Notes: generated by a model from the letters alone, not told the origin. 42,066 nucleotides of DNA from a virus (IMGVR_UViG_2541047679_000006:1-42066); one strand, 5' to 3'; numbered from the stretch's first letter, positions 1,331-40,260 are shown. Numbers and translations are program-made.

Positions 1331-1418
1331 GCTTTTTTATACTAAGTTGGCATTATAAAAAAGCATTGCTTATCAATTTGTTGCAACGAACAGGTCACTA
1401 TCAGTCAAAATAAAATCA
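1331..1418. repeat. attL: 15-bp common core GCTTTTTTATACTAA (1331-1345) plus lambda-type P' arm
   Basis: Core sequence read directly; downstream sequence (…AGTTGGCATTATAAAAAAGCATTGCTTATCAATTTGTTGCAACGAACAGGTCACTATCAGTCAAAATAAAATCATTATTTGATTTC…) matches the lambda attP P' arm as I recall it. Confidence 0.85.
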
Positions 1419-2489
1419 TTATTTGATTTCAATTTTGTCCCACTCCCTGCCTCTGTCATCACGATACTGTGATGCCATGGTGTCCGACTTATGCCCGAGA
1501 AGATGTTGAGCAAACTTATCGCTTATCTGCTTCTCATAGAGTCTTGCAGACAAACTGCGCAACTCGTGAAAGGTAGGCGGATCCCCTTCGAAGGAAAGAC
1601 CTGATGCTTTTCGTGCGCGCATAAAATACCTTGATACTGTGCCGGATGAAAGCGGTTCGCGACGAGTAGATGCAATTATGGTTTTTCCACCAAGAATCTC
1701 TTTGCATTTATCAAGTGTTTCCTTCATTGATATCCCGAGAGCATCAACATGCAATGCTGTTGGGATGGCAATTTTTACGCCTGTTTTGCTTTGCTCGACA
1801 TAAAGATATCCATCTACGATATCAGACCACTTCATTTCGCATAAATCCCCAACTCGCTGCCCGGTAACAACAGCCAGTTCCATTGCAAGTCTGAGCCAAC
1901 ATGGTGATGATTCTGCTGCTTGATAAATTTTCAGGTATTCGTCAGCCGTAAGTCTTGATCTCCTCACCTCTGATTTTGCTGCGCGAGTGGCAGCGACCGG
2001 GTTTGTTGTTATATGGCCTTCAGCTATTGCCTCTCGGAATGCATCGCTCAGTGTTGATCTGATTAACTTGGCTGATGCCGCCTTGCCCTCGTCTATGTAT
2101 CCATTGAGCATTGCCGCAATTTCTTTTGTGGTGATGTCTTCAAGTGGAACATCAGGTAGACCCCTCCTTATTGCTTTAATTTTGCTCATGTAATTTATGA
2201 GTGTTTTCTGCTTGATTCCTCTACTGGCGAGTATTTTTTCGTAGCGATCAAGCCATGAATGTAACGTAACAGAATTATCACTGTTGATTCTCGCTGTCAG
2301 AGGCTTGTGTTTGAGTCCTGAAAATAACTCAATGTTTGCCTGTATTGCTTCAGTAATTGCTATCCTCCTGTCTCTGCCTAATCCGAACTCTTTACCCGTC
2401 CTTGGGTCCCTGTAGCAGTAATATCCATTGTTTCTTATATAAAGGTTAGGGGGTAAATCCCGGCGCTCATGACTTCGCCTTCTTCCCAT
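1419..2489 (-). CDS. int: Integrase, tyrosine recombinase (lambda Int type)
   Basis: 356-aa translation MGRRRSHERRDLPPNLYIRNNGYYCYRDPRTGKEFGLGRDRRIAITEAIQANIELF… is essentially lambda Int; ATG verified at 2489-2487. Confidence 0.95.
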   Translation of the reverse strand: MGRRRSHERRDLPPNLYIRNNGYYCYRDPRTGKEFGLGRDRRIAITEAIQANIELFSGLKHKPLTARINSDNSVTLHSWLDRYEKILASRGIKQKTLINYMSKIKAIRRGLPDVPLEDITTKEIAAMLNGYIDEGKAASAKLIRSTLSDAFREAIAEGHITTNPVAATRAAKSEVRRSRLTADEYLKIYQAAESSPCWLRLAMELAVVTGQRVGDLCEMKWSDIVDGYLYVEQSKTGVKIAIPTALHVDALGISMKETLDKCKEILGGKTIIASTRREPLSSGTVSRYFMRARKASGLSFEGDPPTFHELRSLSARLYEKQISDKFAQHLLGHKSDTMASQYRDDRGREWDKIEIK

Positions 2490-2685
2490 TTCTGATCCTC
2501 TTCAAAAGGCTACCTGTTACTGGTCGATTTAAGTCAACCTTTACCGCTGATTCGTGGAACAGATACTCTCTTCCATCCTTAACCGGAGGAGGGAATATCC
2601 TGCATTCGCGCACCCATCGACGAACTGTTTCAAGGCTTCTTGGGCGCCGCTGGCGTGCGTTCCACTCCTGAAGTGTTAAGTACAT
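2467..2685 (-). CDS. xis: Excisionase (lambda Xis type), overlapping the int start
   Basis: 72-aa translation MYLTLQEWNARQRRPRSLETVRRWVRECRIFPPPVKDGREYLFHESAVKVDLNRP… matches lambda Xis; overlap with int as in lambda. Confidence 0.9.
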   Translation of the reverse strand: MYLTLQEWNARQRRPRSLETVRRWVRECRIFPPPVKDGREYLFHESAVKVDLNRPVTGSLLKRIRNGKKAKS

Positions 2686-2704
2686 CGCAAAGTCTCCGCA
2701 ATTA

Positions 2705-2733
2705 CACGCAAGAAAAAACCGCCATCAGGCGGC
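2705..2733 (-). terminator. Candidate intrinsic terminator upstream of xis (hairpin GCCGCC-TGAT-GGCGGT followed by a T-run on the minus strand)
   Basis: Inverted repeat with G-U wobble plus TTTTTTCTT read on the minus strand; overlaps the stop of the 55-aa ORF. Confidence 0.35.
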
Positions 2734-2892
2734 TTGGTGTTCTTTCAGTTCTTCAATTCGAATATTGGTTACGTCTGCATGTGCTATCTGCGCCCATATC
2801 ATCCAGTGGTTATAGCAGTCGTTGATGTCCTCTGCTTCGATAACCCTGTTGAATGGCTCTCCGTTCCATTCACCTGTGACTCGGAAGTGCAT
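2725..2892 (-). CDS. Hypothetical small protein (55 aa) upstream of xis
   Basis: ATG at 2892-2890 preceded by GGAGA; translation MHFRVTGEWNGEPFNRVIEAEDINDCYNHWMIWAQIAHADVTNIRIEELKEHQAA; below the ORF-track size cut-off. Confidence 0.4.
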   Translation of the reverse strand: MHFRVTGEWNGEPFNRVIEAEDINDCYNHWMIWAQIAHADVTNIRIEELKEHQAA

Positions 2893-3240
2893 TTATCATC
2901 TCCATAAAACAAAACTCGCCGTAGCGAGTTCAGATAAAAGAAAACCCGCACTCGGCGGGTTCGCATTCGTTCAAATTGCGTTTACTTCTTGGCGTTCTGT
3001 TCATCCATATCGATATACCATGGGTTGCTTCCCTTGGGCATGTTTAACGACTGCTCGCGATAGTATCTGATGCGCTCCATGAAATACTCGCGTGAGTGCT
3101 CAGGTTGCTCTCATGCTACCTGCTCAGTGATAACAGGTATATTAAGGCGCTCTCTGTACTCCATGCCTGATGCTGCAAGGTCAACGTTTACCTTGTTCTG
3201 TTTTTCTTTCGATTTCTCGGCGATGTTATGCCTGACATTG

Positions 3241-3483
3241 TCAACCAGCCTCCTTCTGAACATAACGGTTATAAATCAGTCCCTGAGGGCCATAAGGAAG
3301 CGGGATGTGCAACTCCTCTGGTTCAGAAACTATCCATTCCCCGGCCATCTCCGCTGGAGAGGTAATGATAAGTTGTTTGCTAATAAAAGGACCACTCCTC
3401 TCAACAACAAGCTTACCATCTTCATTAATAAAAGCTTGGATGTCAGGTGTGCTTCCACACTTGGTGATGCAGCGTTTGAACAT
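3241..3483 (-). CDS. Hypothetical protein (80 aa)
   Basis: ORF with ATG start at 3483-3481; an unusual C7 tract (3491-3497) lies just upstream; no recognisable family. Confidence 0.3.
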   Translation of the reverse strand: MFKRCITKCGSTPDIQAFINEDGKLVVERSGPFISKQLIITSPAEMAGEWIVSEPEELHIPLPYGPQGLIYNRYVQKEAG

Positions 3484-3610
3484 TTTGTGTCCCCCCCATT
3501 TTATGTACGGGGTAATTATAACACATTGAAATATAGTAATATTTGACGTAGATTTCTTTTGATCTATAAGCGATTTTTTAATGCTTTTAAGTTATAAATA
3601 CTTGTTTTCA

Positions 3611-4219
3611 TCACCCATCTTGCTGCGGTGCTACTATTGAAAAGTACTCACACCCTTTAGCCCAAATAGTTTTGATAGTTGTCCAACTGACTGGAACCTT
3701 GATTTCGATTCTCCCGCTGCCGTCACAAGTTTCGCAATCATCATCACCAAAGCATTCCGGGCAGCTTATAAACGTAGTTTCTGAAAATTCACCGGATAGC
3801 ACACCCTTAGCGCCGTTCTCAGCGGTTAGTTTCTTCGGCACTATAACCCAACCATCCGGAGTTACCGGAGAGTTGCCCGATGGCTCGTTCAACTTGCAAG
3901 TTTGGCTTACAGGTTCAGCTTCCAGTTCTGCTATGCGCTTTTTTGCTGCTTCCAGCTCGCCAAGCAGCGCCAAGACGGTAGCCGGATTGGCTGCGGCGAT
4001 GAATTCAGCATTGGCCTGCTGTTCCATTTGGAAATCTTCATCGAAACCGCTTTCTGGATGCGCTCCTTCAATTCTGCAAATGGGAAGATATCCAACAACT
4101 TCACGATGAATTAGCGCATCACCAGCATCAAATCTCTCCTCTCCATATTCGAGCGACCACACACCACACGTTGCTTTTTCTGCTGCCTCACGCAGTGCCT
4201 GATAGTCAATCTTGTTCAT
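3611..4219 (-). CDS. Ea22/Ead-like early protein (coiled-coil N-terminus, Cys-rich C-terminus)
   Basis: 202-aa ORF, ATG with GGTGATG RBS; composition (…LLGELEAAKKRIAELEA… then CPECFGDDDCETCDGSG) resembles the Ea22 family of lambdoid b2/early regions. Confidence 0.5.
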   Translation of the reverse strand: MNKIDYQALREAAEKATCGVWSLEYGEERFDAGDALIHREVVGYLPICRIEGAHPESGFDEDFQMEQQANAEFIAAANPATVLALLGELEAAKKRIAELEAEPVSQTCKLNEPSGNSPVTPDGWVIVPKKLTAENGAKGVLSGEFSETTFISCPECFGDDDCETCDGSGRIEIKVPVSWTTIKTIWAKGCEYFSIVAPQQDG

Positions 4220-4220
4220 G

Positions 4221-4520
4221 TCACATCACCCTGAATCCGTTGCATTTACGTAAGAAATCGCAGATATAGCCCTTCATTTTTTCATGCCAATCTCGATCAT
4301 TCCCATTGCACCAACCATCAGGTGGAGTCCAGTTTTCTATCAGAGCAGCCATTTTCTTTGCTTTCGCCGGAGTAGCTGTTGCGGTATCGCAGTAATGACG
4401 AGTGTCAACCAACGCATCCATACCATCGATATCAAGTACGCAAAACCATGTGTGATTCGGAATTCCTACAGGTGGTATTTGTTGCCCACGTCGACGTTTA
4501 TCAATAAGATATACACTCAC
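4221..4520 (-). CDS. Hypothetical early-left protein (99 aa, GTG start)
   Basis: ORF with GTG start preceded by GAGG; stop abuts the next gene; unrecognised. Confidence 0.45.
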   Translation of the reverse strand: MSVYLIDKRRRGQQIPPVGIPNHTWFCVLDIDGMDALVDTRHYCDTATATPAKAKKMAALIENWTPPDGWCNGNDRDWHEKMKGYICDFLRKCNGFRVM

Positions 4521-4939
4521 TGCTTGCCTCCTTTACGTAGCTCGGCGGCAAAAGCTACTGCGTGATCATGATGTTCAAGTGTGTATGCACACTCCGCAAA
4601 CATCTCCACCCCCTGCGCCCGTACTTCAGCCAGGAAAGCATCGGTAGCTGGAGTTTCAGTAACATCATCTTCCCATTCGCTAAACTCCTCACGACAAAAG
4701 TCATTAAATTCCTTCTCAGATTGCTTAAGCGATGTATTTTCAGCAGCCATCTTCGCGCATTTAGCCTCAAGGTTATCAATCGTGATTCCAGCAGAACGAC
4801 ACTCCCGCAACGCCGTTTCCAGTTTTGATTCAAGCTCACCGAACTTACGCACCAGATATTCAGCGTTTGTTTCGTTAACCTTTAAATCTCGTGGAATGCA
4901 TTTACCTTTCAGAAAACCATCCATCTCAATTAGTGACAT
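4517..4939 (-). CDS. Hypothetical early-left protein (140 aa), Ead/Ea22-like acidic coiled-coil
   Basis: ATG at 4939-4937; start overlaps the stop of the upstream 59-aa ORF. Confidence 0.45.
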
Positions 4940-5109
4940 TTGTTTAATTTCTTCCCACTCCGCAACATCGCATTCAGATATTTGTTTTGATTCACTGATG
5001 GAAAAGAATTTCTCTTAAGCAATTCCTCTCTCGATGGCATTGGCTTTACGCGTTGGCGAATAATCATTTCTGCCGGAAGAATGCCGGGATTGTATGCAAG
5101 TCCTCTCAT
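4930..5109 (-). CDS. Hypothetical small protein (59 aa)
   Basis: ATG at 5109-5107 with GGAG RBS 7 nt upstream; just below the track cut-off; no family recognised. Confidence 0.3.
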
Positions 5110-5125
5110 GGTAAACTCCTCTTTG

Positions 5126-5440
5126 TTAATTTATTCGTATGCCCGCTCTTTCTTCATCGAGTTTTTTTAGCTTGTATCTCATAGCTCTTACTGAATAAAT
5201 TGAGCGGCAGGTTGCAATTGCTATTTCTTCTGCGGAGAACTTACCGAAAAGTGATACTTCGGCTCTTGTCCATCGTCTTCCACGAAGTCGGCTAACAATG
5301 TCAGCGCCAATCCTTGTTGCTTTCGCCATTACTGCTTTTTCAGTCCTTTCCAGTTTTTCAGCGATAACTTCAACTGGCATTGTCGCCGCTACTTCGCGCA
5401 AGAAATCGACTTCCCATTTCTCCCAAGGAGTCTTTTTCAT
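5126..5440 (-). CDS. Hypothetical early-left protein (104 aa)
   Basis: ATG-initiated ORF in the same operon orientation; unrecognised. Confidence 0.45.
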
Positions 5441-5451
5441 AGTCGATACCG

Positions 5452-5940
5452 TTATTTGATAAGAAGTGAAGGTTTCCCAACTTTGAGTTGAGCGCCGGGG
5501 ATATTTATTCCTGCTTTTAGTTGGTGTTTGATTGCCAGTTTGTCGGCTTTAATTGTCGTTTCAAACTCAACGTATTCAGGAGGAAGGGCGCTTGAGTCGA
5601 TGATTTCTACAATTTCTGACGGTTTGCGGATTGTTACCTGGTGAATACCTGCTCGAATCTTTTTCTTGCCAACCATTTCAAGCGATGACGCTATATATGA
5701 TTTGATGCTGTCAATCTTATTTTGAATTACTGCGGCTCGCTCATTCAGCGACTTTGCCTCTTCCTTGAGGCGTTCAGCATAACCAGATTCATTTTTAATG
5801 ACGGAAAGAAGTTGCTCTATTTTATCGGTAAATTCTCCTTCCATGCCTTCTATTGTGTCAGCAATCATCTCTGGCTCTAAATCTGAATCCATCAGCTTTG
5901 CGTATTCATTGGCTATTTCATACAGTTTGCTCACTGGCAA
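5452..5940 (-). CDS. Gp157-family protein (recombination-module accessory); probable real start GTG at 5934
   Basis: Translation (…KLYEIANEYAKLMDSDLEPEMIADTIEGMEGEF…KSLNERAAVIQNKIDSIKSYI…) resembles the siphovirus Gp157 family usually found next to recT/erf; GGAGG RBS 6 nt before the GTG. Confidence 0.55.
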   Translation of the reverse strand: MPVSKLYEIANEYAKLMDSDLEPEMIADTIEGMEGEFTDKIEQLLSVIKNESGYAERLKEEAKSLNERAAVIQNKIDSIKSYIASSLEMVGKKKIRAGIHQVTIRKPSEIVEIIDSSALPPEYVEFETTIKADKLAIKHQLKAGINIPGAQLKVGKPSLLIK

Positions 5941-6829
5941 CCTCCAGTTTCGCTTTGCATTCTATGTAAATGGCTTGTACGTTCTGCTGCAATTTCATTC
6001 CAGATGTCAGGCGATATGCTTCTGCAAAATATCGCTTCAAATCATCCATGTTTTCAGCCTGAGCCATTTCATCACAAAGAAGTTGTGCTTTATCCGTTAT
6101 TTCCTGCTGGCGTTTCCGTTCATCTTCGCGGATATCTTCCTCTGATTTGTGCGGCATAACTGGTTCAGTCCACACACCTTCTTCTTCGTTTAGTACGTGA
6201 ATAGCACTATCAAGACGTGATGCCTTAGGCCAATACTTGCTTGCACGCTTTACGACCGTCTTTCGCGCCATCTCATTCCAGTGATTTACCCATGGTCCTT
6301 TATCGCTGAATGCTGCCTTGCTTGTTTTCCTTACAGCCTCAATTTCAGCCAGACTCATCTCTTCCGTTAGATAATCACCTGCTGGCGTCTTAACTGTGCA
6401 GTAAACGCCAACGATATCACCACGATCACCGAAGGCGTTGTATTTATGGGTTGGTGCTTTATCAAGCCCGTTTGACTCATAGGTATCGTTAGCATGAACA
6501 AGTTTTGCCTGACCCCATGAGATAACACCAGACTCCATTGCAATATGGAGCAATCCCATATAACTGATATCAAGGCAAACCATGCCGTCGCGCGGAACCA
6601 GATAAGCCAGTTTGCTGGCCGGGTTTAAGGTGATGCCGATCGCCGCAACATTGATGATGGCGTTCTGTGCGCTGGTTGGATTTGCCAGTGCCGTTTTAGC
6701 CAGGTAATCGTTTTTCTGGAAATACTGAATTGCAAACTGGCTTTCCTTAGCCCATGTCACCGTCTGTTCAGTCAATGCTCCGCAGAATAACTGCTCTTGC
6801 TGTTTAACGAATTCAACGATATTGCTCAT
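5918..6829 (-). CDS. recT: RecT-family single-strand annealing recombinase
   Basis: 303-aa translation recognised as RecT/Bet-superfamily; ATG verified at 6829-6827. Confidence 0.8.
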   Translation of the reverse strand: MSNIVEFVKQQEQLFCGALTEQTVTWAKESQFAIQYFQKNDYLAKTALANPTSAQNAIINVAAIGITLNPASKLAYLVPRDGMVCLDISYMGLLHIAMESGVISWGQAKLVHANDTYESNGLDKAPTHKYNAFGDRGDIVGVYCTVKTPAGDYLTEEMSLAEIEAVRKTSKAAFSDKGPWVNHWNEMARKTVVKRASKYWPKASRLDSAIHVLNEEEGVWTEPVMPHKSEEDIREDERKRQQEITDKAQLLCDEMAQAENMDDLKRYFAEAYRLTSGMKLQQNVQAIYIECKAKLEVASEQTV

Positions 6830-7137
6830 GCAGCTTCTCCAAAAATGTGTCTGCGTTTGAATATTGCGAAGGCATATTCAGCCTTAACTCTTTCGGTTAT
6901 TGCATCCCAGAACCATTCAGCGGCTTTTTCCTGATAGTTACAATCATCATCTTCCAGCCAGTCGATAGCATCCTTAGTATGTTCATCTGGTTTATATGAG
7001 CGAAGCATTTCGCTTATTGGGTCGCAACGTTTGCAGAGGCGATCAACTTCACTGTTGATTCGTTCGTAATCTTCATCAGTAAAACTTGCGATTATTTGCG
7101 ATATTTCACGCTTATCATTCAGAGTCAGAATCATCAT
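6826..7137 (-). CDS. Hypothetical acidic protein (103 aa) immediately upstream of recT
   Basis: ATG-ATG start at 7137; overlaps the recT start by 4 nt; no nuclease motifs recognised. Confidence 0.45.
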   Translation of the reverse strand: MMILTLNDKREISQIIASFTDEDYERINSEVDRLCKRCDPISEMLRSYKPDEHTKDAIDWLEDDDCNYQEKAAEWFWDAITERVKAEYAFAIFKRRHIFGEAA

Positions 7138-7565
7138 CTTTCTCCTGTTCTTTGTGCTGATTGAGCATTTTGTTCATCTGACGAATGAATTCTTCGTCTG
7201 ACCAGTTATCTGTAAAACTCATTTCCTGCGATACCACGGAAGGTTGATAGCTGATTTCATCGCTTTATTTGCTTCAAGCCACATTTTTGAATCACCAATA
7301 AATCTGGCTATTACTGCTTTGTTCTGTGCAGCACGAAGCATCTGGTGATTAATGGCTATTTCATTGCGCATAACGCCTCCAGTTGTTTCTTTGCTGCTCT
7401 GATTAATTGTTTAACTCGGCGTGATAATTCAGATTCGTGCGGGTAGAAAGCGGACATGACGCCGCTACCCGCGAGCTGAAAGTGCATCATGGGTAACTCC
7501 TTATATTTGATTGCATAACGAAAACGCCTCGAGTGAAGCGTAATTGGTATGCGGTAACGCCGCGC

Positions 7566-7934
7566 TCAGGCGGCCTTGATAGTCATATCATCTGAATCAA
7601 ATATTCCTGATGTGTCGATATCGGTAATTCTTATTCCTTCGCTACCATCCATTGAAGGCCATCCTTCCTGACCATTTCCATCATTCCAGTCGAACTCACA
7701 CACAACACCATATGCATTTAAGTCGCTTGAAATTGCTATAAGCAGAGCATGTTGCGCCAGCATGATTAATACAGCATTTAATACAGAGCCGTGTTTATTG
7801 AGTCGGTATTCAGAGTCTGACCAGAAATTATTAATCTGGTGAAGTTTTTCCTCTGTCATTACGTCATGGTCAATTTCAATTTCTATTGATGCTTTCCAGT
7901 CGTAATCAATGATGTATTTTTTGATGTTTGACAT
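7566..7934 (-). CDS. Hypothetical acidic early protein (122 aa), possibly DUF2528-like
   Basis: ATG with GAGGAT RBS; family assignment is from memory only. Confidence 0.45.
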   Translation of the reverse strand: MSNIKKYIIDYDWKASIEIEIDHDVMTEEKLHQINNFWSDSEYRLNKHGSVLNAVLIMLAQHALLIAISSDLNAYGVVCEFDWNDGNGQEGWPSMDGSEGIRITDIDTSGIFDSDDMTIKAA

Positions 7935-7953
7935 CTGTTCATATCCTCACAGA

Positions 7954-7980
7954 TAAAAAATCGCCCTCACATTGGAGGGC
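7954..7980 (-). terminator. Intrinsic terminator (GCCCTC-N6-GAGGGC hairpin plus U-run on the minus strand) downstream of the AT-rich cassette
   Basis: Perfect 6-bp stem followed on the minus strand by TTTTTTAT; read directly. Confidence 0.5.
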
Positions 7981-8084
7981 AAAGAAGATTTCCAATAATC
8001 AGAACAAGTCGGCTCCTGTTTAGTTACGAGCGACATTGCTCCGTGTATTCACTCGTTGGAATGAATACACAGTGCTTATTCGTA

Positions 8085-8555
8085 CTAATAAAATACCCAA
8101 TTTTCTGTTTCTTGGTTGTGTCCAAAGTTATATTCAATATCTGGTGTTGATGTATCAATATTTTTCATCCCATCAACAAGAGTTGATACAACAGCCAAAT
8201 CTTGTTTTATTCTCATTAAATGGTATTTCTTCCGGCGCAATAAACTTTCAATGGCAAGTTTCTTCGTTGGGAATGCAAAAGATCTTTCTGCATTTTTTGC
8301 TACTTTCTTAATTGCATATCTATTTCTCCTTTGTTTCCATTCCTGTAACCACTGATTTGGTGCTGGTTTAAAATTAACAATCCAATGCGCAGGAACCAAC
8401 CATGCATAATGCTCTGTCTGATGAAAAGCTATATATTGAAGTGCGAATATTTTGATTCCATCTTCTTCAACTGTCGCCTGGAATCTCCAGAAAACAGGCA
8501 TTCCATCATGTTCAGTTTCTGATTCAGGAAAAGGTACGCTCCATGATTTTGTCAT
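8085..8555 (-). CDS. Hypothetical protein (156 aa), AT-rich accessory gene, second gene of a two-gene cassette
   Basis: ATG at 8555 with GAGGTGA RBS; visibly AT-rich relative to neighbours; perfect 9-bp inverted repeat (8043-8051 / 8062-8070) just downstream of the stop; no family recognised. Confidence 0.55.
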   Translation of the reverse strand: MTKSWSVPFPESETEHDGMPVFWRFQATVEEDGIKIFALQYIAFHQTEHYAWLVPAHWIVNFKPAPNQWLQEWKQRRNRYAIKKVAKNAERSFAFPTKKLAIESLLRRKKYHLMRIKQDLAVVSTLVDGMKNIDTSTPDIEYNFGHNQETENWVFY

Positions 8556-8618
8556 ATATCACCTCAAATAATTCAGTACAGTGTTTATTCTCTTGTTTAT
8601 GCCAAAAATAAAGGCCGA

Positions 8619-9242
8619 CTATGAGGCCTCGGAAGGAAGTCCAATCATCTTATTCAAATCTTCTACCCGTAAAGCAGGAAGTGCTGTACTTGCTTTATCT
8701 GCTTCTTTTGGTAGCAATTCTTTGCTTTCAGGCCAAACTTCAATAAGTCGCTTAACTGTTGTGACTGAGTTCAAAGCAGCCCATACATTTGATTCGATAT
8801 CCTTTTTCTTGGCTTCAAGTTTTTGTTGCAATGCGCAGATTTCATCAAACCTTTTTGTTATTTCGTGTTCTGCGTCAAACATGCATTTATCTTTTTCTGG
8901 GGTGGGGAGCAATATATCTTCACCGTTGCCGTCTTTTCCGTATGAATGCCAGCCAACCCTTCTTCCAGATACAATCAGATAAATCGAAGTAGAACGAACA
9001 TCGTATGAGTAAAATGAACATCCCATCTTTTCAAGTTCTTCACTTATAGCTACCAACTTGGATGATAACTGATCCACTTCCTCAGTTTTCTTTTTACCTC
9101 CAAACGCAATAACTCTGGCGTCAAGTGCAAGCTGGTTCTTTAACTTTGTTACTTCTTCAAGTTCAGTGAAAACCCCAGACTTAATTAAAGCGTTACGAGC
9201 GATTTCCTCTTTCATTCTCGTAGTTAAGCGGATTGATGACAT
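8619..9242 (-). CDS. Hypothetical protein (207 aa from the ATG at 9242), AT-rich accessory gene, first gene of the cassette
   Basis: ATG at 9242-9240 with GAGAGG RBS (the track's longer ORF begins at a TTG); AT-rich; no family recognised. Confidence 0.55.
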   Translation of the reverse strand: MSSIRLTTRMKEEIARNALIKSGVFTELEEVTKLKNQLALDARVIAFGGKKKTEEVDQLSSKLVAISEELEKMGCSFYSYDVRSTSIYLIVSGRRVGWHSYGKDGNGEDILLPTPEKDKCMFDAEHEITKRFDEICALQQKLEAKKKDIESNVWAALNSVTTVKRLIEVWPESKELLPKEADKASTALPALRVEDLNKMIGLPSEAS

Positions 9243-9356
9243 ATTAATTCCTCTCAAATAAGTGGTTTGCTGCCTAATTTCATTTTCTGGCGACCAACAC
9301 AAGTCACACCCATTTCACTGCGTGGCTTGCGGTAGTAAATTAGGTTTGTTCAGACA

Positions 9357-9378
9357 ATAAAAAACCCACCGAAGTGGG
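9357..9378 (-). terminator. tL1-like intrinsic terminator (CCCACTTCGGTGGG hairpin plus U-run) downstream of N and the 112-aa gene
   Basis: Perfect 5-bp GC stem with TTCG loop, followed on the minus strand by TTTTTTAT. Confidence 0.55.
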
Positions 9379-9717: not shown

Positions 9718-9719
9718 AC

Positions 9720-10025: not shown

Positions 10026-10135
10026 GATGGTCTCCTTTCAGTGGCTTTGGCGCATGACGCGTCGAGGTGCTTATCTTCTCGATCGCTGTCTTGCAGCTGC
10101 AATTCGCGCCATCCCCAAAACCACTCAAGTTCTGG

Positions 10136-10177: not shown

Positions 10178-10222
10178 GCCAATCTGTTCCGTTTGGCTTC
10201 CAGCGTCCTGCTGATGGCTTAA

Positions 10223-10990: not shown

Positions 10991-10992
10991 AG

Positions 10993-11055: not shown

Positions 11056-11070
11056 TTTCGGAGCAAGTCT

Positions 11071-31680: not shown

Positions 31681-31689
31681 GGTGGGAAT

Positions 31690-33075: not shown

Positions 33076-34985
33076 TGGCCTATAGTCGTGAACAGTTGAT
33101 GACAGCATTAAGGAACGCTGATGCGGCAGGCGATACAGAAGGAGCGCGTCGCATTGCTCAGATTCTGTCCTCCAGTAATCAACCAACTCAAAACCAAAAG
33201 CAGCCTGTAGAACAGCAAGATGGATTTATGTCTGACCTCGGCGAAGCAGTAAAAGAAACTGGTCGCGGACTGGTGCAGGCTGGTGTAAATGTGGCAAATA
33301 TACCAGCATCAGTTGCCGATGCTGTAACAAGCGCGGCGGCATGGGCTGGCGGCAAACTCGGTATTGGTGATGGAACATATCAACCAGCGCCACGAGTAAC
33401 AACTCAGGGATTAGAGCAGGCGTTTGGACTTCAGCAAGGTGCTCTGACTCCACAAACGACAGAAGGTAGGGTGTTTGCGGAGGCATTGCCTTACCTGGCT
33501 ACTGTTGGCGTTGGCGGCGCTTCAACTCAGGCGCCAACACTTGCTGGTCGAATTACTCAAGGCGCAGCCCGTCTTCTGGCAGAAAACGCAGTCGGATCAC
33601 TCGCCGCAAACAGTGAGAAAAATGATGCGGGAAAACTGGCAACAGATATAGGTGTTGGCATGCTAACAGGTGGTGCTGTTAATACTGTTGCAAAAGGACT
33701 TGAGCGTGGAATAACTGCCTTTAAAGGTGATATTGCACCAGAAGTGGCGAAGAAAATTGCCATATCAGAATCGATGGGCGTGACACCAATGACATCTGAT
33801 GTTATCCCGCCGAAAAATGCTTTCACTCGCGGCCTTACTCAGGATGCCGAGGGGGCTTTGCTCGGGACAGGCTCAAAGCGAGCTGAGCAGTATGCAAAGA
33901 GAAGTCAGCTAGTTAAAAAACAGCTTGAGAAATATGGTGAATATAGTCCATCAGTTGTTGTTGATGATCTGTATGGTTCTCTGAAGTCAAGGAAGGATTC
34001 GGCCGGAAGCGTTATTGAAGACATTACAACCAAAATGGGAGACACACCTGTTGACACATCAAAATCTATTAAGGTTATCGACAACGTACTTACCAGAGCT
34101 AACAGGCTTGGGAAAGTGGCAAATAAGGATTTGATTCGCGGGTTATCCGATTTGCGAGAAGAACTTGCTAAACCAGATATAGATTTTGGTCTATTGAGAG
34201 AGTTGCGGTCAGCCTTGAGGGAAAGTATTCAGGGAGATGCCATGGTTTTTCCTAATAGCGCGAAAGCCGCAACTGATGCCGTGGAGAGGGCAATGGGGGC
34301 AGATTTGAGGAATAACGCAGCGCGGTATTTGGGGGCTGGAGAGGCCGCCAGATACGTCAAAGCAAACTCTGACTACTCCAACGTCTTCAATAAAGTTCTC
34401 AATAAAAGGATTGCGAATAATCTCAACAAAGCTAAAAAAGAGTTTACTCCAGAGCTAATAAACAGCGTTGTATTCAGCAGAAAACCATCAGATATTAAGA
34501 GGATATGGCCTGCTCTTAGTGAAGATGGAAAGAACGCTATGCGTGCTGCTTATATCAGCAAGATTGCAGAAAAAGCAGGAGACTCACCAACAAAATTTCT
34601 TACCGAGTTAAATAAGTTGAAGTCGCAATCTGACGGTCAGATCTATAACACGATATTCAGTGGGAGACACATGAAAGAGCTTGATGCTCTTCATGAAGTT
34701 CTACAGCAAACAGCAAGGTCGGACGCCGCAAATGTAGTAACACAGACAGGACAATCGCAAGCTAACAGGATTAGAACGATTGGCGCAACTGCGACTCTTG
34801 GGGCAACACTGGCGCTTGAAGCTGGTTTCGGTGCAATCATGCGCTTGTACGAGTCCAAAGCAGCAAGGAATGCGCTCTTACGTCTGGCAAACACTAAAGC
34901 TGGAACGCCAGCCTATGAAAGAGCGTTAAGTAACGCTGCAAATGCCATCAGGCCGCTGCTTGCCACTGAGGCAACACAGCAGTAA
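33075..34985 (+). CDS. Ejection protein (P22 gp16-like)
   Basis: 636-aa ORF in the gp16 position; ATG overlaps the upstream stop. Confidence 0.6.
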   Translation: MAYSREQLMTALRNADAAGDTEGARRIAQILSSSNQPTQNQKQPVEQQDGFMSDLGEAVKETGRGLVQAGVNVANIPASVADAVTSAAAWAGGKLGIGDGTYQPAPRVTTQGLEQAFGLQQGALTPQTTEGRVFAEALPYLATVGVGGASTQAPTLAGRITQGAARLLAENAVGSLAANSEKNDAGKLATDIGVGMLTGGAVNTVAKGLERGITAFKGDIAPEVAKKIAISESMGVTPMTSDVIPPKNAFTRGLTQDAEGALLGTGSKRAEQYAKRSQLVKKQLEKYGEYSPSVVVDDLYGSLKSRKDSAGSVIEDITTKMGDTPVDTSKSIKVIDNVLTRANRLGKVANKDLIRGLSDLREELAKPDIDFGLLRELRSALRESIQGDAMVFPNSAKAATDAVERAMGADLRNNAARYLGAGEAARYVKANSDYSNVFNKVLNKRIANNLNKAKKEFTPELINSVVFSRKPSDIKRIWPALSEDGKNAMRAAYISKIAEKAGDSPTKFLTELNKLKSQSDGQIYNTIFSGRHMKELDALHEVLQQTARSDAANVVTQTGQSQANRIRTIGATATLGATLALEAGFGAIMRLYESKAARNALLRLANTKAGTPAYERALSNAANAIRPLLATEATQQ

Positions 34986-35009
34986 CGTATGGGAAATTGG
35001 ATTCAATCG

Positions 35010-35399
35010 CTAACATTTTCTTTTTACTTTTCCAACAAAAGCTTTGGTTGAATCCATATTTCCATAACCGGAAATGGTTTTTGACATTAAAACTGTTCCA
35101 GTAGGATGTATTACCCATGAGTCGATAACGCGTTGAGTTTCGCCATTCGCGCCGATTCCTATGATGGAGTTTTTAGACAATGCTTTGTAAGCCATGCCGC
35201 CCGCATCTGTCCCAGAATATGTGATGCTGGCATCTTCACCGTTTGTCTTAATGATGAATGTTCCACTAAAACCATCTTCTTCCGGATGGAAATTATTTCG
35301 TTCTGAATAGCTTATTCCGCGCATATCTCCAACGACCCAGCACTCTGCTGTAGCCCCAAAAGATATGAATAAGAACATAGCAGTAAGAAATTGCTTCAC
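35010..35399 (-). CDS. Hypothetical secreted/periplasmic protein (129 aa, N-terminal signal peptide), moron candidate in the immI-equivalent region
   Basis: N-terminus MKQFLTAMFLFISFGATA-E is a typical Sec signal; convergent with the ejection genes; AT-rich. Confidence 0.55.
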   Translation of the reverse strand: MKQFLTAMFLFISFGATAECWVVGDMRGISYSERNNFHPEEDGFSGTFIIKTNGEDASITYSGTDAGGMAYKALSKNSIIGIGANGETQRVIDSWVIHPTGTVLMSKTISGYGNMDSTKAFVGKVKRKC

Positions 35400-35539
35400 A
35401 CCAACCTCCTTAGTTTTGAGCAGGATACCAGATGATACTGTATTGGTGGAGTGGTGTGTGAAAACGTGTCAACGACAAGCCATCCACAACTTGGACGAAT
35501 GATTTAGCAAAAAGTGCTATTTTTGGTGTTTAGTGTCAT

Positions 35540-35562
35540 AGAAAAGTGAATAGCTCACTTTT
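35540..35562. promoter_or_regulatory. Perfect palindrome GAAAAGTGA-ATAGC-TCACTTTTC in the divergent intergenic region (candidate operator)
   Basis: 9-bp perfect inverted repeats with 5-bp spacer read directly; lies between the divergently oriented secreted-protein gene and the GepA-like gene. Confidence 0.35.
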
Positions 35563-35773
35563 CAACATTGCATGAAACTTGCAGGAAATGTGACATTACC
35601 TTATAGGTAACTTCGGCGAAAATGCAGTAAATGTGAAACGTAATGATTTAAACGTGTCGAGAAAGTGGTTGTAAGTTAGCCTCTGAAGGATTGATGACAG
35701 CTTTGTTATGGTATTAAATGCAACTTGACACAGTTGTATACATAGCTGCGGCTATCAAGATGGAGGTATGTTT

Positions 35774-36217
35774 ATGCTCACTTGTTTTGATGTCGCCGAC
35801 TACTTCTTGGCGCATTGCGATGAAGAAAGTGGCGACATTATCTCTAACCTAAAAATTCAGAAGTTGACGTATTATGCCCAAGGGTTTTCTCTGGTTCTTC
35901 TGGGTAAGCCGCTATTTAATGAGAAAATTGAAGCCTGGATGCATGGGCCAGTAGTTCCTGAATTGTATCGTAAATATAGGGACTGTGGTAACGGAGCTTT
36001 ACCTGCGCCAGAAAACTTTGACGCTAAAAAATTCAGTGAAGATGAAATTGAATTGCTGGATGAGGTGTATAAAGTTTATGGTCAGTTTTCTGCCTGGAAA
36101 CTGCGCAATATGACTCACGAAGAGCAGCCATGGAAAGATGCTTACATTGAGGGTGCGGTTAGCCAAGAAATCACACTTGATTCTATGAAAGGTTTTTTCA
36201 AAACGTTAATTAACTGA
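35774..36217 (+). CDS. GepA/Panacea-like (DUF4065-like) phage-associated protein, candidate antitoxin-type component
   Basis: Translation (…DVADYFLAHCDEESGDIISNLKIQKLTYYAQGFSLVLLGKPLF…WMHGPVVPELY…) fits my recollection of the GepA/Panacea family; GGAGG RBS 6 nt before the ATG at 35774. Confidence 0.65.
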   Translation: MLTCFDVADYFLAHCDEESGDIISNLKIQKLTYYAQGFSLVLLGKPLFNEKIEAWMHGPVVPELYRKYRDCGNGALPAPENFDAKKFSEDEIELLDEVYKVYGQFSAWKLRNMTHEEQPWKDAYIEGAVSQEITLDSMKGFFKTLIN

Positions 36218-36222
36218 CGTGT

Positions 36223-36645
36223 ATGTCTAGAGTTAAGGGAAGAATAAAACAGAGGGATAAAGAGAGCTCTGCTACTGTTGGCCTCTCTATCCATCACGAA
36301 TCTCATGATGTAGAAAAAAGTCCGCCTGTATTTTCTCTTAGATACCTACAAAAGGGGTATTGCCTGGATTGCTGCCAAAAGCATGAAAAGGCAGCATTTG
36401 CAGATAGGCTGTTCAGGTTAAGTCAGATGTCATGGGATGAGATACGAAAATCTGATAAACACGGGCTTGGGACGGAAAAAATTGCCAGAAACGCGATAAA
36501 GGCTCCGATTCCTAAGCATGTTACTCAAGATGTGGATTTCATTGCGTTCAGATTTTGCTCTAAGGCACCTATGGTTGGTTATAAGATAGGAGCCACTTTT
36601 TATGTCTTATGGCTCGACAGGGAGTTCAAGCTATACAAGCACTAA
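36223..36645 (+). CDS. Hypothetical protein (140 aa) tightly linked downstream of the GepA-like gene, candidate partner/toxin
   Basis: ATG 5 nt after the upstream stop with no SD of its own, suggesting translational coupling; basic N-terminus and CxxCC motif; unrecognised. Confidence 0.5.
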   Translation: MSRVKGRIKQRDKESSATVGLSIHHESHDVEKSPPVFSLRYLQKGYCLDCCQKHEKAAFADRLFRLSQMSWDEIRKSDKHGLGTEKIARNAIKAPIPKHVTQDVDFIAFRFCSKAPMVGYKIGATFYVLWLDREFKLYKH

Positions 36646-36672
36646 TAAAACCCACCGTCAGGTGGGTTTTTT
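36645..36672. terminator. Bidirectional intrinsic terminator between the 140-aa gene and mnt (AAACCCACC-GTCA-GGTGGGTTT flanked by A/T runs)
   Basis: 9-bp perfect stem with T-run on the plus strand and A-run on the other side; overlaps the mnt stop. Confidence 0.6.
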
Positions 36673-36918
36673 GTACAAATCCTTCAGCGTATCAAACACC
36701 ATCTTCTTAACAAGATCTGACTGCTCATCAGCGAGTCGTTCTGCATCGTCACGATACCCGCTTACAGGTGATGGTTTGGAGAGTGATTCTTCCATCGTAG
36801 CCACAATTTCGGAATTGATAGACCTGTTATTCATTTTTGCACGCTGCTTAATCTTAGCGTGCAACTCGTGCGTAAGCCTCAAGTGGAACTGCGCCTCATC
36901 GTATTTGCTGTACATCAT
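36658..36918 (-). CDS. mnt: Mnt-like repressor (P22 immI ribbon-helix-helix family), without arc or ant
   Basis: C-terminal 86 aa (…AKMNNRSINSEIVATMEESLSKPSPVSGYRDDAERLADEQSDLVKKMVFDTLKDLYKKPT) closely match P22 Mnt as I recall it; ATG at 36918 with GGTGAGG RBS; the longer track ORF is an upstream read-through. Confidence 0.8.
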   Translation of the reverse strand: MMYSKYDEAQFHLRLTHELHAKIKQRAKMNNRSINSEIVATMEESLSKPSPVSGYRDDAERLADEQSDLVKKMVFDTLKDLYKKPT

Positions 36919-37050
36919 CAATGCCTCACCAAATGGGTGGAATGGCATCGTAAAACCTACTGTACAAATCAACAATCGTACCATTTCGGTATGTAACAAA
37001 TTCCAACCGTAGCCATGCTTCGGTGATTCCTTGTATCTGGAGCAAATTAA

Positions 37051-39756
37051 ATGACAGACATTACAGCCAATGTTGTAGTGAGTATGCCTTCGCAACTCTT
37101 CACTATGGCGCGTTCTTTTAAAGCCGTAGCCAATGGCAAAATTTATATCGGTAAAATTGACACTGACCCGGTAAATCCTGAAAACCAGATTCAGGTTTAT
37201 GTAGAGAACGAAGACGGTTCTCACATTCCTGTTTCGCAACCAATAATCATTAACGCTGCTGGATATCCGGTATATAACGGACAGATTGCCAAATTCGTAA
37301 CCGTGCAAGGCCATTCTATGGCTGTTTACGATGCTTATGGCACTCAGCAGTTTTATTTTCCAAATGTATTAAAATACGATCCAGATCAGTTTGGCCCAGA
37401 CTTCAAAGAGCAGTTATCTCAATCAGGAGCATACATTAATGATGATTCAAAAGGTGATGCATTAATTGGGGTAAGGCAGCCATTTACCGGGGCTGTAACT
37501 ATAACTCAGCATGAAAACAATGCTCTTTTCTTAAATGTAAAACAATTCGGAGCAATTGGGGATGGGAAATATCATCCATTATCTGAGAGGTTTTCTTCAA
37601 TTTCTGAAGCAAAATCCTTATATCCTTTTGTTGACTCATTATCTCAGTCAATAGACTGGGCCGCGTGGCAAGCTGCCCTTAACACAGGAAAGGTTATTTA
37701 TGGTACTGATAATGCGTATGTAATAACGGATACGTTAACACCTGTTTCTGGTGGTGGGATAATTGGTCTTGGTGTGGGCAAATGGGTCTCCGGATATACT
37801 GCAACATTTGCTCCTGATATTACCACAGGGACCACATTCCTGATGTACGGGGTAGGAAATAAAAAATATACTGTAGATTGTGTTTCTAATATGGATGTTA
37901 GTGGTGGTGTGGTTTCTAATCCATCTTCCGAAGACCCGTATACAACAACAGCACCTGCGTCATCATATGATTTATTGGATTTTACTAACGGTGATGCTAA
38001 TGGGACTACAAGAGCCACGCTTAAACCATTCTCTGCCGCAATATTGATGCCTGAGACAGGATGTGTTCGCCTTGAGAACTTTCGTGTTGTTCCATATTTC
38101 AATGGGCTGGATGGTTATAAAGACATTGCAAATACCGGTCTTGGCGATGAGTGGGATGTAGGTATTTGGTCACGTGCGTCTTTTGGCAATGAATACCGCA
38201 ATTTGCAGGTGGTTGGATACTGGCGCAAGACGGCACTTTTAAAAACGAACATTCCTGTATCTGGCACGCTGGCTGCTCAGGGCGAGGATGAAAACTATTA
38301 TCACTGTAGATTCCAGGGATTCAAGGGTGTTTCGATCCGCGCCAATGATGTATTCCGAATTACAGCGGTAACGTCCAGCACTATCGAAATCCCATGGTCA
38401 GCAAGCCACACCTTCGAAACGTCCGGAGTTTTAAGATCTGGAGGCAGGAATTTCACTTATTCAGGATTATCCGTATCCGGTGATAAGTTAGTATTTACTG
38501 GAGTGTCTAACGCTTCTGAGGCAACAGTAGGTTCTACTATACGGCGAAATGACATAGATAACTTTGGTATGGCGGGAACGCAATTTTTCGATTGCTACAT
38601 TACCAGCCTGTATCACCACACACATCTGCTTGCCACATCGCAATACCTGTCTCAACCATTCAGCCGACCATCAGAGTGTATGGAGGTTTCAGGGGAACCA
38701 GTTCGCGGTGTACAGGTACATGCAGGAACCATTCAGGGATGGGATGATGTTCTTATTCATCTGCATGACTGTGGAAATATGAACTTTTACAGTACATATT
38801 TCGAAAGCCAGCAAGCATATGTAACTATAAATGGTGGTAATGCTATTGGTTATGGAGCACGTATGATAGCTTCCCGGCAATCAACAAGCTCATTACCATA
38901 TGCAGCAGGGAATACACGAGTGCTTAGAATGGTCGGGTGCTCTGAAGGCAATGGCGTTGACTGGGGTCCTGTATTTAACAACTATACAGGAGGAAGATAT
39001 AATTCTGGAGACGGTGTATTTAACCCCCGCGATGCATTTATAGACCATAAATCTCTTCCTGAGCAGTCAGGAGGTGAGTCAAGACTCGTATCACAAAAAG
39101 GAAATGCCAGAGTAGTATGTGGTGTTGGTAAAACTGTACTGCTTGGACCAACGTCAGGAGATTGTAATTTACAGAGTAATACCGGAAGTTTAAATATTAG
39201 AAGTGGGATAAGAGTAAGAGTCGGTCACGCTGATGGAACAGACTGGTGGTTGGCAGATGCTAATAAAATAGCTCCTGTTGATGATAATGTTAAAGCTATT
39301 GGACAGCCATCAAACAGATGCTCTGTTATCTATGCAGGAACCGGGTCAATCAATACATCAGATGAAACTCTTAAAACAAGATATGATATTCTTAATGCAG
39401 AGCGTGATGCCGCTATTGAAATAAAGTCAGTCATCTATAAATTTAAATTTAATGACTCAATTAATCACAAAGGAATTGAGTCGTCCAGGTATCATTTTGG
39501 CGTTGGCGCTCAAACCGTAGGGGATATTCTTAGAAAGCATGGTTTAAATCCTGAGCAATATGCTTTTTGGTGTTACGATGAATGGCCTGACGTATGGGAT
39601 GAAGAGGTGATAACTGAAGAGAGCACAGATCCTGATACAGGTGAGAAAATTTATTCTCAATATAAAACAGGAGATATGATTCTTGTAAAAAAAGCAGGAG
39701 GACGCTACGGAATTCGTTATGACGAATTGGCTATGTTTATATTAATGGCAATGTAG
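37051..39756 (+). CDS. Tailspike: P22-type N-terminal head-binding domain, divergent central receptor-binding domain, C-terminal S74-like intramolecular chaperone domain
   Basis: N-terminus [47 protein letters not shown]… matches the P22 gp9 head-binding domain; remainder unlike P22; C-terminus has an S-D-x-x-L-K motif (…[15 protein letters not shown]…). Confidence 0.85.
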
Positions 39757-39774
39757 TTGCAATAAATGCAGTAT

Positions 39775-39805
39775 ATCCCGCATAAAAATGCGGGATTGTT
39801 TTTAT
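39775..39805 (+). terminator. Intrinsic terminator after the tailspike gene (ATCCCGCAT-AAAA-ATGCGGGAT plus T-run)
   Basis: Perfect 9-bp stem followed by TGTTTTTAT. Confidence 0.6.
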
Positions 39806-40058
39806 CTGGTGTATTTATGAATTTTAAGTAAATTTTAGTATTGATTACTGCATCGCAGTTAAAGCCTCATTACCTATGAGGCAAAACTGAGACACACAAG
39901 GCTTTGCACTGGATTGCAAGGCTTTGTGCTATCTGAGATATAGCAATGTTGGTTGCTCCACCTTTTCATCAAGCCAGTCCGCCCACCACTGCATCATTTC
40001 TCTGCGCTTATCGAGATACTGAGCATGGTTGTAAATTCAACTAACCCAGTGAGTTGAC

Positions 40059-40099
40059 AAAAAATTAGCGCAAGAAGAAAAAAAATCACCTTGCGCTAA
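40059..40099 (-). terminator. sib/tI-like retroregulatory hairpin of the att P arm (TTAGCGCAAG…CTTGCGCTAA with U-run on the minus strand)
   Basis: 10-bp perfect inverted repeat (40065-40074 / 40090-40099) followed on the minus strand by TTTTTTG; sequence matches my recollection of the lambda sib region left of attP. Confidence 0.5.
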
Positions 40100-40260
40100 T
40101 GCTCTGTTACAGGTCACTAATACCATCTAAGTAGTTGATTCATAGTGACTGCACATGCTGTGTTTTGCAGTATTATGTAGTCTATTATTTAGACCAAAAC
40201 CATCATAACACATTGATATTGATGATTTTTCTTGTTTCTCATTCAGCTTTTTTATACTAA
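40100..40260. repeat. attR: lambda-type P arm plus the 15-bp common core (40246-40260)
   Basis: Core GCTTTTTTATACTAA identical to the attL core; preceding sequence (…CTGTTACAGGTCACTAATACCATCTAAGTAGTTGATTCATAGTGACTGCA…) resembles the lambda P arm; host B' sequence (CTTGAGCGAAACGGG…) follows. Confidence 0.85.

Follow-up and report, generated by a model that had tools for sequence, protein, structure and literature searches.

A mosaic lambdoid prophage with P22-like virion genes, apparently complete, at the lambda attachment site of Escherichia coli

The DNA stretch IMGVR_UViG_2541047679_000006:1-42066 (42,066 nucleotides, referred to below as the window) contains a prophage of 38,930 bp, which occupies positions 1331-40260 and is inserted in an Escherichia coli chromosome at the lambda attachment site, attB-lambda. 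A preliminary description of the sequence had read this element as a mosaic lambdoid prophage combining the att sites, int and xis of lambda with the N/nut system of phage 21 and virion genes of P22-like phages. This reading was supported when the modules were compared one by one, using local BLASTN and TBLASTN, with lambda, lambda imm21, P22, Sf6, CUS-3 and JEP4; phage 21 was represented by the lambda imm21 hybrid (OM418625), by peptides in the PDB and by notes in the Sf6 annotation. The element is bounded by the 15-bp lambda att core GCTTTTTTATACTAA, which occurs twice, without a mismatch, at 1331-1345 and at 40246-40260; the outer edges of these copies (1331 and 40260) are its limits, and no other att core is present. 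The left copy is arranged in the order host-core-P' and the right copy in the order P-core-host, and the adjoining host sequences (…GAAGCCT before the core and CTTGAGCG… after it) are those of E. coli attB-lambda. The duplicated core lies between ybhC and ybhB, and the predicted attP junction reads …TTCTCATTCA-GCTTTTTTATACTAA-GTTGGCATTA…. The cores and the nearest host genes are:

1-1284, minus strand: ybhC, the left host neighbour.
1331-1345, no strand: attL core (B-O-P'), 15 bp, same as the lambda core.
40246-40260, no strand: attR core (P-O-B'), an exact copy of the core.
40351-40827, minus strand: ybhB, the right host neighbour.

Inside these limits, the integration module is distributed over both ends of the prophage:

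1346-1430, no strand: P' arm with arm-type Int sites, identical to lambda in the alignment.
1419-2489, minus strand: int, a lambda/434-type tyrosine integrase of 356 amino acids (99% amino acid identity to lambda Int; arm-binding domain PF09003 and PF00589).
2467-2685, minus strand: xis, lambda-type excisionase (99% amino acid identity to lambda; PF07825).
2725-2892, minus strand: homologue of orf55 (lambdap35; 96% amino acid identity to lambda).
39895-39928, no strand: hairpin homologous to lambda 27473-27510 (b-region), from the alignment.
39937-40054, no strand: 3' leftover, 118 bp, of an IntS-type (Sf6/CUS-3) integrase gene (97.4% identity to Sf6, 85% to CUS-3).
40055-40245, no strand: P arm, holding tI/sib (40065-40099), P1 (40109-40121) and P2 (40142-40151).

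The segment from the P' arm through int and xis to orf55 (1331-2947) is 97.4% identical in DNA to lambda 27724-29340, and Int and Xis are, as first described, near-identical to their lambda counterparts. An arm-binding Int, P1, P2, P'1-3, Xis and, across att from int, the tI/sib hairpin are all present. The same closeness to lambda had been claimed for the sib hairpin and for both att arms: it holds for the hairpin (identical stems and two loop differences) and for the P' arm, but not for the P arm, which is 87.7% identical over 40055-40264. Retained in the P arm are P1 and P2, the hairpin, the H1 region, an IHF H2 core and the beginning of X1, whereas its X2/Fis stretch is rewritten relative to lambda. 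The IntS leftover, situated between the b-region hairpin and the P arm with tI/sib, is absent from lambda; together with the variant P arm it was also found in the isolated phage JEP4 and in phage 434. It might be taken for a scar left when a P22-like genome and the lambda int module were joined, yet it is not specific to that event, because phage 434, whose record carries no Lederbergvirus assignment, has the same leftover beside tI. Lambda and 434, in which the core, P' arm, int and xis are 95-97% identical to those of the window, possess siphovirus virion genes, in contrast to the P22-like ones found here. Judged from these comparisons, the integration cassette is best named lambda/434 type, and its IntS scar is old.

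The opposite half of the genome is taken up by the virion genes, preceded by two smaller genes:

20275-20817, plus strand: Rha-family regulator (PF09669 and PF10549; 99% amino acid identity to CUS-3).
21045-21287, plus strand: DUF2560 protein (hkbM), from the domain search.
21290-23142, plus strand: small and large terminase subunits (100% amino acid identity to CUS-3; PF04466).
23144-27598, plus strand: portal, scaffold and coat of the CUS-3 subtype (97%, 89% and 99% amino acid identity to CUS-3; PF16510, PF11651).
27601-30546, plus strand: small open reading frame (ORF), gp4, gp10 and the gp26 tail needle with an Sf6-type knob (PF11650, PF11134, PF16532; needle 94% amino acid identity to Sf6).
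30543-34985, plus strand: gp14-like protein and the ejection proteins gp7, gp20 and gp16, divergent alleles (PF11039, PF25688, PF16928; 22-72% amino acid identity to P22).
37051-39756, plus strand: tailspike of 901 amino acids (head-binding PF09008, E 1e-66; S74 domain PF13884).

The order terS-terL-portal-scaffold-coat-orf-gp4-gp10-gp26-gp14-gp7-gp20-gp16-(immI-like region)-tailspike is that of P22, and each P22 virion gene has one full-length counterpart here, in the same order. Eight families of a P22-like virion module were recovered (PF16510, PF11651, PF11650, PF11134, PF16532, PF25688, PF16928 and PF09008). The morphogenesis genes had been called P22/Sf6-like, which is borne out by this order, by these families and by the Sf6-type knob of the needle, but not by the capsid genes: relative to P22 the portal is 35% identical, the scaffold gives no hit and the coat is 30% identical, and relative to Sf6 the portal reaches 56% and the coat gives no hit, the procapsid being of the CUS-3 subtype. 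From gp14 to gp16 the best DNA match is Salmonella phage Emek (95%), and gp16, without a Pfam match, is 52% identical to P22 gp16 over 89% of its length. The tailspike joins a P22 head-binding domain to a central part and a C-terminal endosialidase-type S74 self-cleaving chaperone; its DNA is 98% identical to prophage YDC107_2 and 99.9% identical to a prophage of E. coli UPEC_U013. With P22-like short-tailed virion genes, exact att cores and ybhC/ybhB flanks, the element would, as had been proposed, form a podovirus-type particle and use the attachment site of lambda.

Between these modules lies an immunity region of the phage 21 type, into which a gene known from HK022 is set:

9253-9350, minus strand: 3' leftover of a phage 21-type N gene (94.9% identity to imm21 34353-34451).
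9363-9380, minus strand: intrinsic terminator after nun, from the terminator scan.
9379-9723, minus strand: nun, HK022-type transcription arrest factor (111/114 amino acids shared with HK022, 114/114 with mEp235; PDB 6ALG chain N, E 9e-71).
9720-10025, minus strand: N antiterminator with a phage 21 arginine-rich motif (ARM) and a variant C-terminus (amino acids 1-57 as in N21; 100/100 shared with mEp235 N).
10136-10176, minus strand: nutL (boxA 10167-10176, boxB 10136-10155), identical to phage 21.
10340-10990, minus strand: cI repressor of phage 21 type, with helix-turn-helix and S24 peptidase (100% amino acid identity to imm21 cI; Pfam).
11071-11256, plus strand: cro of phage 21 type (100% amino acid identity to imm21).
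11263-11303, plus strand: nutR (boxA 11263-11272, boxB 11286-11303), identical to phage 21.
11372-11668, plus strand: cII, phage 21-like (89% amino acid identity to imm21).

Over 9803-11708 the window is 97.7% identical to the imm21 region. Residues 8-29 of N are those of the phi21 N peptide crystallised with boxB RNA (PDB 1NYB), and with identical cI, Cro, boxA and boxB the immunity and the N/nut specificity are those of phage 21; the ARM of N and the boxB loops had rightly been described as 21-like. As a whole, N is 80% identical to phage 21 N, which has another set of C-terminal 45 residues, so that the complete protein is not N21. In lambda, the C-terminal third of N contacts RNA polymerase. 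Along the minus strand from 10025 to 9253 the order is N, nun, terminator and N21-type 3' leftover, the last being found in mEp235 and Kapi1 as well. The Nun protein, 97% identical to that of HK022, has an unchanged ARM, the part of Nun that binds lambda boxB, and an unchanged C-terminal ...KKWS motif, and matches PDB 6ALG and 1HJI; in HK022, by contrast, only a leftover piece of N, of the same C-terminal variant, is retained ahead of nun, and the lambda imm21 record, unlike the window, has no nun after N. Both N and Nun are 100% identical in mEp235, which is annotated with N and a Nun-like factor and shares 97.8% of positions with window 8574-9802, and the N-nun block is also present in Kapi1 and UPEC_U013, where its genes are labelled hypothetical only. 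Taken from sequence, the N-nun layout looks like that of a nun cassette which entered by recombination within N.

Replication, late control and lysis are encoded by the following genes, among which several accessory ones are interspersed:

11849-12679, plus strand: O-like replication initiator of the P22 gp18 type, chimeric (79% amino acid identity to P22, 93% to CUS-3 over the C-terminal half; PF04492).
12676-14052, plus strand: DnaB-type replicative helicase of the P22 gp12 type (100% amino acid identity to CUS-3/JEP4, 90% to P22, 31% to Sf6; Pfam).
14138-15175, plus strand: small accessory ORFs of 71, 63, 60 and 122 amino acids (phrog_1785, phrog_343).
15147-15730, plus strand: ninB and ninE (PF05772).
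15691-16677, plus strand: C5 cytosine DNA methyltransferase cassette in the nin region (PF00145, E 5e-14; PADLOC methyltransferase models).
16664-17878, plus strand: ninF, orf70, DUF1364, rusA and ninH (97-100% amino acid identity to CUS-3).
17875-18393, plus strand: Q, late antiterminator of phage 21 type (PDB 6JNX/6P18, Q21, E 1.5e-90; 98% amino acid identity to Sf6/CUS-3).
18457-18612, plus strand: tRNA-Asn(GTT) and tRNA-Thr(TGT), from tRNA and Rfam scans.
18855-19638, plus strand: S holin and R endolysin of lambda type (99% amino acid identity to lambda).
19635-20072, plus strand: Rz i-spanin with embedded Rz1 o-spanin (19834-20019), P22/Sf6 type, with a crossover at an Sf6 boundary sequence (19704-19751).

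Two assignments of the preliminary description need correction here. The helicase had been regarded as P22/Sf6-like; its relation to P22 gp12 stands, while a Sf6-like helicase is ruled out by an amino acid identity of 31%. Similarly, the whole cassette S-R-Rz/Rz1 had been considered near-identical to lambda, which is true of S and R and, at 91.7%, of the DNA of 18614-19883, but a lambda type throughout is ruled out by the spanins: Rz is 57% identical to lambda as against 94% to P22/Sf6, turning from lambda-like to P22-like after about 30 residues, and Rz1 shares 22 of 63 positions with lambda as against 58 of 61 with P22/Sf6. The tRNA pair, also found after Q in Sf6 and annotated there as phage 21-like, was all that the Rfam scan of the window returned.

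The early-left region completes the inventory of core genes:

2948-3610, minus strand: accessory stretch with a theta (HolE)-like pseudogene (3111-3263) and an ORF of 80 amino acids (3241-3483) (phrog_9613; UPEC_U013 annotation).
3611-7137, minus strand: early-left genes for Ea22-like, DUF7739, orf140, DUF2737, orf104, Gp157-like, RecT and orf103 (Pfam).
7219-7371, minus strand: kil (Kil 100% identical in amino acids to Sf6/CUS-3).
7356-7490, minus strand: cIII, from ORF reading and annotation.
7566-7934, minus strand: homologue of lambda ea10 (DUF2528; 99% amino acid identity).
8085-8555, minus strand: orf156 (phrog_1636).
8619-9302, minus strand: Nmad5-family protein ('nucleotide modification associated domain 5'; PF18757, E 7e-71; 98% amino acid identity to mEp235).

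The genes at 3611-7137 show partial identity to Sf6 and CUS-3, their RecT block being common to Kapi1, and 7514-8075 is 98.4% identical to lambda. No match to the accessory stretch 2948-3610 was found in the five canonical phages; its theta homologue is truncated, and UPEC_U013 has a counterpart labelled 'DNA polymerase III subunit theta, internal stop'. Nmad5 and the 156-amino-acid orf156 (8085-9302) lie downstream of nun in a stretch of low G+C content (38-39%).

Taken together, the genes follow the lambdoid order int-xis / early left / N / cI-cro-cII / O-P / nin / Q / lysis / virion, with each core function present in one copy and the genes full length in comparison with CUS-3, Sf6 and P22, and at 38.9 kb the element is about as large as Sf6 (39.0), JEP4 (39.2) and CUS-3 (40.2). 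We are therefore highly confident that one temperate phage genome, to all appearances complete, is integrated here at attB-lambda, and that it belongs to the P22-like lambdoid branch (genus Lederbergvirus, CUS-3 capsid subtype). Since all core genes are full length and present once, an intact, inducible phage is rated the most likely state of this genome, our confidence in its viability being somewhat lower than that in its identification.

Several observations weigh against this assessment. The functions of the element are deduced from sequence; the four genes from gp14 to gp16 are distant from every allele that has been studied in detail; no solved homologue of the tailspike's central part was among the PDB hits; and the P-arm segment for Xis X2, Fis and IHF H2 is strongly diverged from lambda, the IHF H2 core alone being recognisable in it by eye. 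Moreover, mnt (Arc/Mnt family; 36658-36915, minus strand, from sequence comparison) stands without an adjoining arc or ant, so that its usual target operon is missing, and this, together with the theta-like pseudogene, implies some decay or rearrangement. The solitary mnt, the pseudogene and the altered X2/Fis part would all fit a defective (cryptic) prophage that can neither excise nor form particles and is kept for its accessory genes (nun, toxin-antitoxin pair, methyltransferase). Such a condition is nevertheless improbable: the core genes are intact and both att cores exact, arc and ant are dispensable accessory genes which several P22-like phages such as Sf6 lack, and JEP4, which forms plaques, has this diverged P arm and the IntS leftover as well, so that such an att region does not speak against a functional phage.

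The extent of mosaicism is illustrated by the share of the prophage that each reference matches at an identity of at least 90%. This share amounts to 4% for P22 (22% at an identity of at least 70%), 10% for lambda, 15% for lambda imm21, 18% for Sf6, 35% for JEP4, 44% for CUS-3, 45% for the record 720R6 and 57% for vB_EcoP_Kapi1, the highest value for any one phage; combined, the five canonical phages likewise reach 57%, and all eleven references 73%. The mosaic reading had been open to refutation by a single known phage that matched the element from end to end; no sequenced phage covers more than 57%. Under the ICTV criterion, phages are assigned to one species at about 95% nucleotide identity over the full genome. 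That the prophage is a copy of one already sequenced phage could be argued from the values for Kapi1 and for the UPEC_U013 prophage, which shares 83% of the element at an identity of at least 90%, but this is very improbable, since none of 50,697 phage records (INPHARED) covers at least 80% of either half, and no complete RefSeq E. coli genome gives an end-to-end match or covers both halves. Even UPEC_U013 has other sequence or no match at 14081-14338, 15736-16667, 19844-21641 and 33215-36997, save for three short matches in the third of these blocks and a single short, weak one in the fourth.

The UPEC_U013 prophage (NZ_CP058596.1, about 3,445,700-3,486,000) is the closest relative and occupies the same site in the arrangement ybhC / prophage / ybhB-TnpB. 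It is 99.76% identical to window 1-14080, which includes int through helicase with imm21, N, nun and Nmad5, and 99.90% identical to 36998-41028, with the tailspike, attR, ybhB and the start of tnpB, while its virion genes are 94.5% identical. Differences concern the Rz/Rz1 tail, the Rha region, the small terminase subunit and parts of gp20/gp16; it possesses NinX where the window has the C5 methyltransferase, and arc and an antirepressor where the window has a Panacea gene pair and a protein of 129 amino acids.

Among isolated phages, JEP4 (MT740315, Lederbergvirus) agrees with the window in the lambda core, the lambda-type Int (99% amino acid identity) and Xis, the variant P arm with IntS leftover, a CUS-3-type coat (95% amino acid identity), an identical helicase and lambda-type S and R, but differs in N, the recombination genes, terminase, spanins, immI region and tailspike. 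Kapi1 (MT813197) shares the RecT block, Nmad5-nun-N, the cI/cro block, the helicase, the tRNA pair and CUS-3-type virion genes; however, it has another integrase and attachment site, its homology beginning at window 2698, and its Q, immI region and tailspike differ. CUS-3 (CP000711) is 95.3% identical to 20104-29918, from the Rha region and terminase to gp10 and the start of gp26, and 97% identical in the helicase, rusA-ninH-Q and S-R-Rz, but carries, unlike the window, an IntS-type integrase, another N ARM, an endosialidase tailspike and mnt/ant genes.

The combination of a lambda-type integrase with a P22-like virion architecture is thus already known from JEP4, 720R6 (a P22-like prophage whose deposited record extends into ybhB and the bio operon) and UPEC_U013. 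Indeed, eight of the 15 best complete-genome matches to the right half join P22-type virion genes to the same host flank, the P22-like phage phiHS3 is reported in a 2026 preprint to lysogenise beside ybhC (bioRxiv 10.64898/2026.05.19.726188), and it is established that P22-like phages have highly mosaic early regions and exchange them with other lambdoid phages (PMC2629481). The prophage is therefore an ordinary new combination within a well-known kind, mosaicism being normal for lambdoid phages.

The junctions between modules had been described as likely recombination seams. The annotations of Sf6 and CUS-3 include boundary sequences (bsq), nine of which have counterparts in the window, most at module junctions:

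4188-4214: Sf6 bsq3; CUS-3 homology starts at 4178.
7963-8075: Sf6 bsq4 (tL2A region), 99.1% over 113 bp; lambda ea10 homology ends and the orf156/Nmad5/nun block starts.
10164-10273: CUS-3 bsq5, partial match; pL-nutL region within the imm21 block, no breakpoint.
11676-11708: Sf6 bsq5; exact 33-bp overlap of the end of imm21 and the start of Sf6 homology.
14049-14118: Sf6 bsq6 (ninA/tR2), 95.7%; the helicase gene ends and the small accessory ORFs start.
18394-18451: CUS-3 bsq4, immediately 3' of Q.
18616-18854: CUS-3 bsq3; lambda-type lysis homology starts.
19704-19751: Sf6 bsq7; switch from lambda to P22 within Rz.
37006-37051: CUS-3 bsq1, immediately 5' of the tailspike.

This mapping, made on sequence, directly supports recombination at short conserved linkers, and the seam interpretation is further upheld by UPEC_U013, whose prophage ends are 99.8-99.9% identical and whose interior differs mainly by discrete cassette swaps. 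A sibling with near-identical ends but different internal cassettes implies that some of the exchanges are recent. The additional claim that the junctions coincide with accessory islands is valid for about half of the major seams (2947, 8075, 9803 and 14118); several others are intragenic, at about 9803 in N, about 12302 in O, about 29918 in gp26, and in Rz, and these seams in N, O, Rz and the gp26 needle have no adjoining island. The claim is also partly circular, because an island is defined by the loss of homology. Islands make up three of the five blocks that separate the window from UPEC_U013, namely the small ORFs at 14081-14338, the methyltransferase as opposed to NinX at 15736-16667, and the Panacea pair and 129-amino-acid protein as opposed to arc/antirepressor at 33215-36997. 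Their G+C content is lower (38-42% at 8-10 kb, 35-38 kb and 39-40 kb).

The restriction of lambda identity to a few patches (1331-2947, 7514-8075, 18614-19883 and 40055-40264) might also suggest two adjacent or nested elements, or an assembly chimera of a lambda-like remnant (int/att, lysis) and a separate P22-like prophage, but the probability of this is negligible, given att cores at the two outer ends only, a canonical single lambdoid gene order without any duplicated core function, and the same layout in JEP4, 720R6 and the UPEC_U013 chromosome, which is 99.8-99.9% identical across both prophage-host junctions.

As a single temperate phage, the element would be expected to work in the following way. 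Int, with IHF, would recombine attP and attB at the 15-bp core, Xis directing excision; the imm21 repressor would keep pL and pR off until its RecA-stimulated self-cleavage. N, acting on phage 21 boxB RNA, would then antiterminate the early operons, after which Q21 would activate the late operon. Terminase would fill the T=7 capsid of a short-tailed particle by headful packaging, S, R, Rz and Rz1 would lyse the cell, and the particle would bind a surface polysaccharide through its tailspike. The mosaic itself probably arose by recombination among co-resident lambdoid phages, partly at boundary linkers and partly within homologous genes, with the accessory cassettes (nun, Nmad5, methyltransferase and the candidate Panacea toxin-antitoxin pair) slotted between core modules.

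Expression of nun from the integrated element would make the lysogen resistant to phages whose nut sites are of the lambda type, among them lambda itself, a user of the same attachment site. One could speculate that this combination of modules is selected, as Nun would arrest phages of the lambda nut type only, leaving the prophage itself, whose own antitermination uses phage 21-type N and nut, untouched and its attachment site defended. We regard this as unlikely: the consensus promoter scan revealed no candidate nun promoter other than pL and none between pL and nun, and an intrinsic terminator is located after cI.

As one more combination in a well-documented pool of lambdoid modules, the element matters little beyond bookkeeping. 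It does offer a clean worked example of breakpoints that fall on boundary sequences annotated years ago in Sf6 and CUS-3, and of a lambda/434 att-int cassette bearing the remnant of an older, IntS-type integrase gene. For annotation, it is probably inducible, it can be expected to show immunity to imm21 phages and perhaps to exclude lambda via Nun, and its methyltransferase and candidate toxin-antitoxin pair could affect the phage sensitivity of the host.

With regard to the accessory genes, the C5 methyltransferase is, from its sequence, probably an orphan methylase that protects the phage. A PADLOC scan of the accessory proteins returned methyltransferase matches and one weak NsnC match only. 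Two of the small ORFs behind the helicase gene (63 and 60 amino acids; 14358-14791, plus strand) are hydrophobic and membrane-like and matched no PHROG family; the block that holds them is one of those replaced in UPEC_U013, a prophage otherwise nearly identical.

Beyond attR and between ybhB and bioA lies a gene for a TnpB/InsQ RNA-guided endonuclease (40936-42066, plus strand; OrfB_IS605 and Cas12f1-like TNB domains). A reading of this ORF of the right flank as bioA is thereby ruled out. Its stop codon coincides with the end of the window, any RNA element past the 3' end of the gene being outside the view, and UPEC_U013 has the gene in the same position.

Besides mnt, the immI-like region between gp16 and the tailspike contains three genes:

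35010-35399, minus strand: protein of 129 amino acids at the sieA position (phrog_2651).
35768-36217, plus strand: putative Panacea-domain antitoxin (PF13274, E 2e-24).
36223-36645, plus strand: putative toxin of 140 amino acids with RelE/ParE fold, from a structure model and Foldseek.

The N-terminus of the 129-amino-acid protein is hydrophobic and, read by eye, suggests a putative signal peptide. The Panacea gene and its neighbour occupy the region used for immI in P22. No Pfam family was assigned to the 140-amino-acid protein and a PDB sequence search with it returned nothing, whereas its AlphaFold model (predicted local distance difference test, pLDDT, 79) matches almost only toxins of the RelE/YoeB/HigB/ParE group, although weakly (best E 0.012). 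The two proteins form a candidate toxin-antitoxin pair. Homologues of the 140-amino-acid protein number 259 and range from enterobacteria to cyanobacteria and archaea, and the pairing with the Panacea gene is kept in the cyanobacterium Aerosakkonema and in a Serratia prophage.

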